A DNA stretch of 64,000 bases from Escherichia coli O127:H6 str. E2348/69 (GTDB lineage Bacteria; Pseudomonadota; Gammaproteobacteria; Enterobacterales; Enterobacteriaceae), in NCBI RefSeq assembly GCF_000026545.1, contig NC_011601.1; one strand, given 5' to 3'. The number at the start of each line of letters is the position of its first letter. Position 1 is the stretch's first letter. The position numbers are program-made. Positions 1 to 3,000 of this stretch are shown here, piece after piece.

Positions 1-3000
1 ATGCTCACCACGTTATATGGATGATAAATAATGGTGAGATTCCATTAGGGTATAAAATTGATCATATAAATGGAGTAAGGTCAGATAATAGGCTATCTAA
101 TCTTCGATTGGTTACACACCAACAGAATGCACAGAACCAAAAGAGAAAAATAACCAATTCGTCAGGAGTGACTGGAGTGTATTTCAATAAAGAGAGATGC
201 AAGTGGATTGCGAATATATGCGTAGATGGGCGCACCAAATATCTTGGAATATTTGCTAGCATCATTGACGCTATTGCAGAAAGGAAGAGGGCAGAAAAAG
301 AACTGGGTTTTCATGAAAACCATGGCAGACCATAACTGCGCAGAACTGATGAGCGATCCGAATAGCTCAATGTACGAGGAAGAAGACGATGGTGATTAGC
401 CGATACGGAAAAATAACGTTTAAACATTTTCAAGACAATCCAACATGGGCTGCTGCGGCTGGATATGACTTTAATTATTTTGATTGTCTGTCAGTCGCAT
501 GTATTGCAACTACCAATGTTGCTAACAACATAATCGATGAATTCTTGGATTTTCCAGACTATCAGGTCAGAGAGTTGCCTGCATTTTTTGTGAAAGTATC
601 TGTTGCTACAGCTCTGTTATTTATTTTGTTATTCGCATATCCATTGCTTGCCGTATTTGTTTATGTGAGATGCAAGCACTCACAAAATGAATACAGCGGA
701 GAGCATACCGATATTACCAGCCAAAATATGCGAGTGTGGTTGAGGAGATGCCAAGAGAAATGGGGGAGAAGTCATGGCTAACCTACGCAAAGAAGCGCGC
801 GGAAGAGAATGCCAGGTACGTATTTACGGCGTATGCAATGGAAATCCTGAAACTACAGTTCTGGCACATTACCGGATGGCTGGAATTTGCGGAACGGGAA
901 TGAAACCTGACGACCTGATCGGCGCATGGGCTTGTAGTGACTGCCACGCGGAGATCGACCGACGCACAAGGATTCTCGACAACAAAGACGCCAGACTTTA
1001 CCACCTCGAAGGCGTGATCAGGACGCAGGCGATACTGCTGAAGGAGGGGAAGATTAAGTCATGAACGAATATCAGTTTGTGCTTCCATACCCGCCGTCGG
1101 TGAACACCTACTGGCGAAGACGGGGAAGCCAATACTACATCAGCGATAAAGGCCAGAAATACCGAAAAGACGTTCAGCAAATCATCCGCCAACTTTAGTT
1201 AGACATTTTCACCAAATCACGACTCCGCATCAAAGTCATCGCAGACGTTCCAGACTCCCGCCGCCGCGACCTCGACAACATCCTGAAAGGTTTACTCGAC
1301 TCCCTTATCCACGCCGGATTTGCGGAAGACGACGAGCAATTCGATGACATTCGCGTAATTCGTGGTGTGAAAGTACCAGGCGGACGGCTTGGAATAAAAA
1401 TCACCGAACTGGAGAACGCATGAACGCCACAATTCAAACGATACCAGAGCTTCTTATCCAGACACGAGGCAATCAGACCGAAGTGGCGAGGATGCTTTCC
1501 TGCGCAAGAGGAACAGTGCTCAAGTACAACCGAGACAGCAAAGGCGAGCGTCATGTAATAGTTAACGGCGTCCTGATGGTCAAACAGGGCAAGAGGGGAA
1601 GACGATGAGACTCGAAAGCGTAGCTAAATTTCATTCGCCAAAAAGCCCGATGATGAGCGACTCACTACTGGCCACAGTTTATTGGTTTTCGTAACTGAGT
1701 CATTTTATTATTTTATTGCAACTTTTAATCTTTTATAGTGCGAAATAAATGGAGCTGGCATTCATTTCGCACTTTATGTTTTTGTTGGACTTATGTTATT
1801 TTGATTGAATTCAATTCAGTTAAAAAAAGAAGGTGATTGCTCCATTTATAAATGAATAGTCATCCCCTGTCTTGAATTCTGATGTTACTTTATTAAATGC
1901 TAGTGTGAAGGCTACAGGTGCATACCCAATTGTTGCGCCAACTTGATATTCATCAACAGTTTTGTTTAGCGATACTGTTGTTTGTTTCGTCTGTATTGTT
2001 TTTCCTTCGAGAGTATAGTTGCGATTGACATCTCGTCTTTCCATACCTGCAAAAATCTTGTATTTGAATCCGCTTGTATCGGACATATGCATTAAACCAC
2101 GGGGAGCCAGCAGACCAAAGCCATTATCCGAATTGAAGGTTTTATCATTACCAATGGCAATGGTTGCGCCATATGCTACATATTGAAATAAGTTTCCAGT
2201 AACAGCAGAAACTTCAGGGTATAATCCAACATTAGCACCTAAAATATCCATACTTGGTGTCATGGATAGCATCCCTTTTACAGTATAACCGTAGCGATTC
2301 TCTATTTGATCATCCCATGCATGATATTTTTCTGCCCCAATAATCTCATGAGCTTTATTTTGTACTTTCTGACCGCCTGCGTCGGGGCCAACAACACCTA
2401 TGTCAGTACCTAATCGATAGCGAATCCAGTCATTCGCAAGGGAGTTCCATTCAATACCAGTGTGAGTGTATGCACTAAAAGCTCTGTCTCCAGTTACAGC
2501 TGTGTTGTGTCTTTTATTACTGCCTGATGGAGAGTAAATATCTTGCGCAATATGGAGAGATAATTGGCTCGAGTCTGAGATATCGTGGCTATATCCCAGA
2601 AATAAGCCTTGTGAGTAATCATCTCTGTTTTCATGTTTATTGCCATAAATATCATTAAGTATTGGTTGAAACTTCCCTGCATCATCATTTGCTAATGATA
2701 ATGCAAGGCTGTTCGCGATAGCTGAACACGTGGTAAATGACAGAGCAATAAAGACGCCAGCGATGACACTTTTTTTCATATGTTATTGTCTTCCTTTTTT
2801 TTGAATGGTGCGCGTATTTTACATACATGAGTTTGTAATACAAGGTGCGTAATCAATATGATGTTTTATAATTGCGTGAGACAATTGATTTATTCGTTTT
2901 TTATTGCGGTTTTTATTATCTTTTAATGTAGCGGTGTTTTTATTAAGTGTGTTTGCGTGGTGTTTTATGTTTTTTATAATTTTTATTTTATTAAATTTAA

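Follow-up and report, generated by a model that had tools for sequence, protein, structure and literature searches.

The stretch of DNA analysed here (the window, 64,000 nucleotides of contig NC_011601.1 of Escherichia coli O127:H6 E2348/69) carries, in the lambdoid prophage PP2, a gene for a RusA-type Holliday-junction resolvase (rusA) that is interrupted by an in-frame amber codon (TAG) at positions 1196-1198. The locus raises the question of whether the gene has been lost, is expressed in spite of the stop, or only appears broken through a sequencing error, three readings that the original prediction had left side by side. The results described below make it very probable that PP2 rusA is an ordinary nonsense pseudogene, in which one A>T transversion at window position 1196 turned the lysine codon 46 (AAG) into amber TAG. 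The lesion itself is already known, since public annotation flags the pseudogene in this reference pathogen genome: the Prokaryotic Genome Annotation Pipeline (PGAP) of NCBI lists a 'RusA family crossover junction endodeoxyribonuclease, pseudo, internal stop' in CP059840.2 (pseudogene entry H4J01_RS17365), LT827011.1 and LT903847.1.

The rusA frame occupies 1061-1423 on the plus strand and has 120 codons, namely 45 sense codons, the TAG as codon 46 and 74 sense codons, followed by TGA. Its conceptual translation reads MNEYQFVLPYPPSVNTYWRRRGSQYYISDKGQKYRKDVQQIIRQL, a stop, LDIFTKSRLRIKVIADVPDSRRRDLDNILKGLLDSLIHAGFAEDDEQFDDIRVIRGVKVPGGRLGIKITELENA and a second stop, the sole internal stop being that at codon 46. 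The start, placed earlier at 1067 (codon 3 of the frame), is corrected here to the ATG at 1061; this ATG overlaps the stop codon (TGA) of ybcO, the next gene upstream. When lysine was restored at position 46, the protein matched the Pfam RusA model PF05866 well above its cut-off of 22.8 bits (62 bits, E=1.1e-16) and aligned without gaps over residues 1-119 to RusA of E. coli K-12 (PDB 1q8r, E=2.8e-26). The 45 residues before the stop (E=9e-5, 23.5 bits) and the 74 residues after it (E=1.4e-8) each matched this one model in the same frame. Since both halves match in frame and the alignment to 1q8r is gapless, the locus is a RusA gene with exactly one lesion, which bears out the view that the frame is intact save for a single TAG.

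The codons for Asp70, Asp72 and Asp91 (K-12 numbering), which we take to be the catalytic residues of RusA, are all present, collinear with the solved protein, and located 3' of the TAG. In the gapless alignment to K-12 RusA the first two fall within the conserved motif at codons 65-73 (1253-1279, plus strand; Asp70 at 1268-1270, Asp72 at 1274-1276), and the third aspartate codon is at 1331-1333. The position of the catalytic region downstream of the stop had been noted correctly and holds for Asp91 as well; the motif itself reads D-S-R-R-R-D-L-D-N, that is DxRRRDLDN with one variable residue, and not DxxRRRDLDN with two. In PDB entries 2h8c and 2h8e, an asparagine occupies position 70 in the RRRDLDN motif region. 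The only in-frame start-like codon after the TAG is a GTG at codon 103, beyond all of the catalytic residues, so that no catalytic fragment can arise by restart, and internal restart between the stop and the catalytic codons was rejected for want of an in-frame start. By sequence, length and motif the gene belongs to the RusA family, and its frame is interrupted; PP2 rusA is a pseudogene member of the family and no functional member, which would be expected to act as a homodimer and to cleave four-way junctions in the presence of Mg2+.

The ancestral codon was identified by comparison with intact alleles, as the original prediction had proposed, and was found to be AAG (Lys). The nearest intact allele (strain 98195) differs from the PP2 copy at four nucleotides, including nucleotide 136 of the gene, and has AAG where PP2 has TAG. 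In an alignment of seven sequences, among them four intact alleles (PP4 of the same genome and strains 98195, A1_136 and C3728), the A>T change at nucleotide 136 was the only one unique to PP2; the A was also present in eight further intact alleles, giving AAG in 12 of the 12 inspected. A 63-mer centred on codon 46 was then counted in complete E. coli genomes (659 matching records): the AAG version was found exactly in 199 records and the TAG version in three, all of them stocks of E2348/69. The exact repaired protein (Lys46) is very common, with 20,323 blocks in the assembly collection that list it. A single transversion thus separates the PP2 gene from a functional allele in circulation, and the gene shows no further decay.

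The same lesion was found outside E2348/69. A lookup of the 45-residue product in the assembly collection returned an identical TAG-bearing rusA in three draft contigs (GCA_000249055.2, GCA_000249135.2 and GCA_000249195.2), each with the gene in PP2 context (NinB upstream, LpxR and the same Q downstream) and matching the window over 2.9-4.2 kb at 99.7-99.8% identity; the remaining matches were intact rusA genes ending at contig ends. The accession prefixes AIEV, AIEZ and AIFB are within those allotted to the E. coli DECA collection, and the strains are presumably DEC1A, DEC1E and DEC2B, which we take to be members of the EPEC1 clonal group, the same as E2348/69. Because the same TAG and the same PP2 context are present in three DECA drafts, the allele is inherited within a natural lineage, is older than E2348/69 and is no laboratory artefact. 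The lesion had been described as recent, a description that stands insofar as no second lesion has accumulated and fails insofar as the allele is common to other isolates and predates the strain. Overall, the locus combines the features of a nonsense pseudogene: a disabling change at an identifiable sense codon, essential residues lost without a restart, and a lesion restricted to one lineage. The pseudogene part of the earlier reading is supported both by the single AAG>TAG difference from the intact alleles and by the RefSeq annotation of an internal stop.

According to this explanation, translation would begin at the ATG at 1061, coupled to that of ybcO, and release factor 1 (RF1) would end it after 45 residues. 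The residual 45-codon frame (1061-1195, plus strand; open reading frame (ORF) 1061-1198), which is called as a 45-residue gene in the three DECA drafts, would be the only expected product, and this peptide would lack the active-site residues Asp70, Asp72 and Asp91, so that no Holliday-junction resolvase would be made from the PP2 copy. Loss of resolvase activity is thus predicted from the sequence. The mutation arose in an ancestor shared with the DECA isolates and was passed on with the prophage; the shared allele shows that PP2 was already resident, with its lesion, in the common ancestor of E2348/69 and those isolates. The loss would have been tolerated for three reasons: the nin region, in which rusA lies, is silent in a repressed prophage and dispensable for lambdoid growth, and back-up would be available from three intact RusA genes in other prophages and from host RuvABC, which also resolves junctions. 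We infer that the loss was neutral, with a mild or absent phage phenotype. The finding is of minor significance: the lesion has already been flagged, and it affects an accessory recombination gene of which the same cell has three intact paralogues. The A>T change at 1196 does provide a clean single-nucleotide lineage marker common to E2348/69 and some DECA isolates.

The alternative that survives best, itself improbable, is that the inactivation was selected, either because PP2 RusA is harmful or because the stop lowers expression of ninH and of the late-gene activator, thereby helping to lock an effector prophage (nleH1, espJ) in the chromosome. If this were true, the allele would have been fixed in this EPEC lineage because productive induction is reduced, through the silencing of PP2 rusA or through weaker translation or transcription into ninH and the activator, which would help to hold the effector-carrying prophage there permanently. 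The idea draws on the fact that several isolates of the lineage have kept the allele, on the virulence effectors of PP2, which are of benefit to the host, and on the translational overlap between rusA and ninH (1420-1608, plus strand; Pfam Phage_NinH, E=2e-24), the ATG of the latter overlapping the TGA of the former (ATGA). However, ninH has its own Shine-Dalgarno sequence (GGAG at 1411-1414) five bases upstream of its ATG, and so need not depend on rusA translation, and N-antiterminated lambdoid transcription resists Rho polarity. A single shared mutation without parallel hits resembles clonal hitch-hiking, there being no other nonsense allele at this site among the 659 records. Intact rusA genes are moreover kept in PP4 and in a P22-like prophage of the same cell, which argues that RusA as such is not counter-selected.

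Expression of rusA by amber suppression or programmed read-through, with the TAG read as an amino acid, is less likely still and is considered very doubtful. An inserted residue would probably be tolerated, since position 46 is variable in the family (Lys in the PP2 ancestor, Met in K-12 RusA, Gln in PP6). Only five tRNA species are one step from a CUA anticodon: Tyr GUA, Gln CUG, Leu CAA, Trp CCA and Ser CGA. The corresponding loci were located in CP059840.2 by walking from their K-12 map positions, and the anticodons were read as GTA at the tyrT locus and at tyrU, CTG at glnV/X (with two TTG), CAA at leuX, CCA at trpT and CGA at serU, all of them wild type. The tRNAs of PP6 and the P22-like prophage were Arg-tct, Lys-ttt, Met/Ile-cat, Asn-gtt and Thr-tgt; neither at the six canonical one-step loci nor among the prophage tRNAs of the fetched loci was a CUA anticodon seen, and ARAGORN found no tRNA gene in the 64-kb window. 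The suppressor tRNA that the original prediction suggested looking for was thus absent from the six canonical loci, and a further point against its proposal of expression by suppression is prfA, the gene for RF1, which is annotated as intact. The base after the stop is T, and TAGT is a strong termination context. A recoded stop would be expected to be conserved, but this one is not: the homologues carry AAG (199 records against 3, and all intact alleles inspected) and the TAG is confined to one lineage. We know of no read-through mechanism of this kind in E. coli, and the locus shows no sign of recoding, of suppression or of any novel mechanism.

A sequencing or assembly error hiding a sense codon at 1196-1198 is extremely unlikely. 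All that can be said for it is the general point that assemblies contain single-base errors, but the change replaces one base in non-repetitive sequence and is no homopolymer indel, and TAG is read in all seven sequences, which come from different projects (the window, CP059840.2, LT827011.1, LT903847.1 and the three DECA drafts); the error raised as a possibility by the original prediction is excluded as far as assemblies show. The window is a separate assembly of E2348/69, since it differs from CP059840.2 at three of 46,716 bases, none near rusA. Its rusA region is 100% identical to three E2348/69 records. Among the assemblies compared, LT827011.1 is 'E2348/69 variety 2' and LT903847.1 an engineered derivative, EPEC1. 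No more credible is a function of the 45-residue peptide, or of a restarted C-terminal fragment: the short frame still has its start codon and is still coupled in translation to ybcO, but the peptide barely exceeds the Pfam cut-off (23.5 versus 22.8 bits) and has no catalytic aspartate, the first possible restart is the GTG at codon 103, past the catalytic residues, and only one lineage has the truncated form.

Several points weigh against the explanation as a simple, neutral nonsense pseudogene. The evidence on tRNAs comes from the six canonical one-step loci and from the prophage tRNAs encountered, a subset of the tRNA genes of the genome. Basal read-through of UAG in E. coli is about 1e-3 to 1e-4, which would yield traces of full-length protein. 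Weak positive selection would also account for an allele that has persisted in several isolates, and the naming of the three DECA strains is our assumption from accession order. The lesion is documented by genome assemblies only, and the inactivity of the product is a prediction from them.

In total, E2348/69 has four RusA genes. The three in other prophages have unbroken frames and carry a RusA annotation or gene call, in contrast to the interrupted PP2 copy. The PP4 gene (L006:6505-6867) is 97.8% identical to the PP2 copy in nucleotide sequence, with two amino acid differences, and the gene of the P22-like prophage (L017:4001-4363, in LT903847.1) encodes the PP2 protein with Lys46, its DNA differing by five synonymous changes and nucleotide 136. 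The PP6 RusA gene, which adjoins Q, is intact and encodes a divergent protein with the same motifs. Downstream of Q in PP6 (L008:7749-7989), three tRNAs were called by ARAGORN (Arg-tct, Lys-ttt and Met/Ile-cat) and two by PGAP (Arg and Ile).

The biochemical and structural reference for the family is K-12 RusA of the prophage DLP12 (ybcP; 1q8r, 2h8c and 2h8e). It resembles the PP2 version in its 120 residues, its PPS.N.Y and RRRDLDN motifs, its three aspartates and its place beside ybcO in a lambdoid nin region, but its gene is intact and has Met at position 46, where PP2 has the nonsense codon. K-12 rusA is poorly expressed until an insertion sequence activates it. The same ybcO/HNH-rusA-ninH-Q module was found intact in phages HK97 (gp66-gp69), HK022, HK620, mEpX1 and HK633, among others, with 96-98% nucleotide identity over about 900 bp. 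Their rusA genes (rus or gp67) are annotated with a RusA, Rus or resolvase product, and no pseudogene flag was visible among the matches listed. Lambda Rap (NinG), a structure-specific endonuclease, is similar to RusA in its nin-region neighbourhood and in its presumed resolution of branched recombination intermediates, but the two proteins are of unrelated families; lambda forms plaques without Rap. The nin region of PP2 has no annotated NinG.

The prophage is inserted at the lambda attachment site, with ybhC on one side and ybhB/bioA on the other, and the gene neighbourhood of rusA is that of a lambdoid nin region. PP2 of E2348/69 is recognised by its content of nleH, cif and espJ (PMC5685641). 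The prophage in the window is PP2 of enteropathogenic E. coli (EPEC) E2348/69, since nleH (31656-32537), a truncated cif pseudogene (32761-33414) next to a transposase fragment, and espJ (34711-35364), all annotated on the plus strand, are present at its tail-fibre end, where they form an effector cluster spanning 31656-35364. Other small lesions in PP2 are a partial HNH gene and a duplicated ninF, a remnant of Q, a frameshifted small ORF, the truncated cif and the transposase fragment. The genes annotated as intact include int, xis, a Rad52-type recombinase, ssb, anti-RecBCD, N, the repressor, cro and cII, as well as the replication genes, Q, the lysis genes, terminase, portal, and head and tail genes, so that PP2 looks otherwise largely complete.

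The whole nin region of lambda can be deleted (nin5) without loss of viability, and the rusA lesion therefore says little about whether PP2 can be induced. One pseudogene in a dispensable nin region is by itself no proof of a defective prophage. The suggestion that PP2 is decaying or domesticated is plausible in view of the old, shared lesion and the few scars elsewhere, but the rusA lesion lends it little weight, the core genes of PP2 being annotated as intact, and is no demonstration of decay.

Upstream of rusA, ybcO (DUF1364, a putative nuclease) occupies 774-1064 on the plus strand (Pfam YbcO, E=7.6e-44), its TGA overlapping the rusA ATG as ATGA. Downstream of ninH, where intact Q genes follow in relatives, PP2 has a 72-bp remnant of the Q antiterminator (1605-1676, plus strand; PGAP 'antitermination protein, incomplete, missing C-terminus'), which ends where a segment with lpxR begins; the five phages named above have a complete Q after ninH instead. 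The segment contains lpxR (lipid A deacylase; 1820-2779, minus strand), ylcG (3118-3240) and a second, complete and different Q (3255-3944). The region 1605-3944 has the look of a module exchange through which an outer-membrane 'moron' gene was acquired, and the arrangement of Q remnant, lpxR, ylcG and Q is shared by the DECA contigs. A scan of 600-3400 for promoters and terminators gave no excess over shuffled expectation (six promoter-like sites against 7.6±2.4 and one terminator-like site against 2.4±1.7).

On the opposite strand of rusA there is an ORF of 119 codons (1195-1554, minus strand), which was treated as probably spurious, being without a Pfam match. The A>T change at 1196 also creates its TAA stop (reverse complement of 1195-1197), the ancestral codon being TTA (Leu).

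At the start of the window (1-399), fragments of an HNH endonuclease gene were observed together with a second copy of ninF, and an ORF at 21-335 had an HNH_3 domain (E=3.9e-15). PGAP has only a partial HNH pseudogene upstream and 'NinF' at 244-399 in this region. One DECA contig (L031:1769-2339) has a longer HNH_3 ORF of 168 amino acids at the equivalent position, and because of this E2348/69 may carry a further frameshift here.

Genes for PasD near lpxR and Q are described in a bioRxiv paper of 2026 (10.64898/2026.05.13.724894), in which the mention of rusA is unrelated to the TAG lesion. The PasD description fits the part of PP2 at about 3950-7700, on both sides of a SASA esterase gene (5415-7265), where Rfam gave no RNA family at the gathering threshold.

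An Rfam search of the whole window returned no RNA family besides a molybdenum cofactor riboswitch (46484-46628; RF01055, 103 bits), which lies upstream of moaA in the chromosomal flank and is also annotated in the record. Just outside the prophage end, a gene for an RNA-guided endonuclease of the InsQ/TnpB family (36453-37583) stands alone between ybhB and bioA. The mismatches with CP059840.2 are at 4656 (T/C), 4692 (A/G) and 31027 (G/A), two of them inside a 744-bp hypothetical gene downstream of Q and one upstream of the gene for a tail-fibre C-terminal domain (31281-31550); they probably represent stock-to-stock variation within E2348/69.

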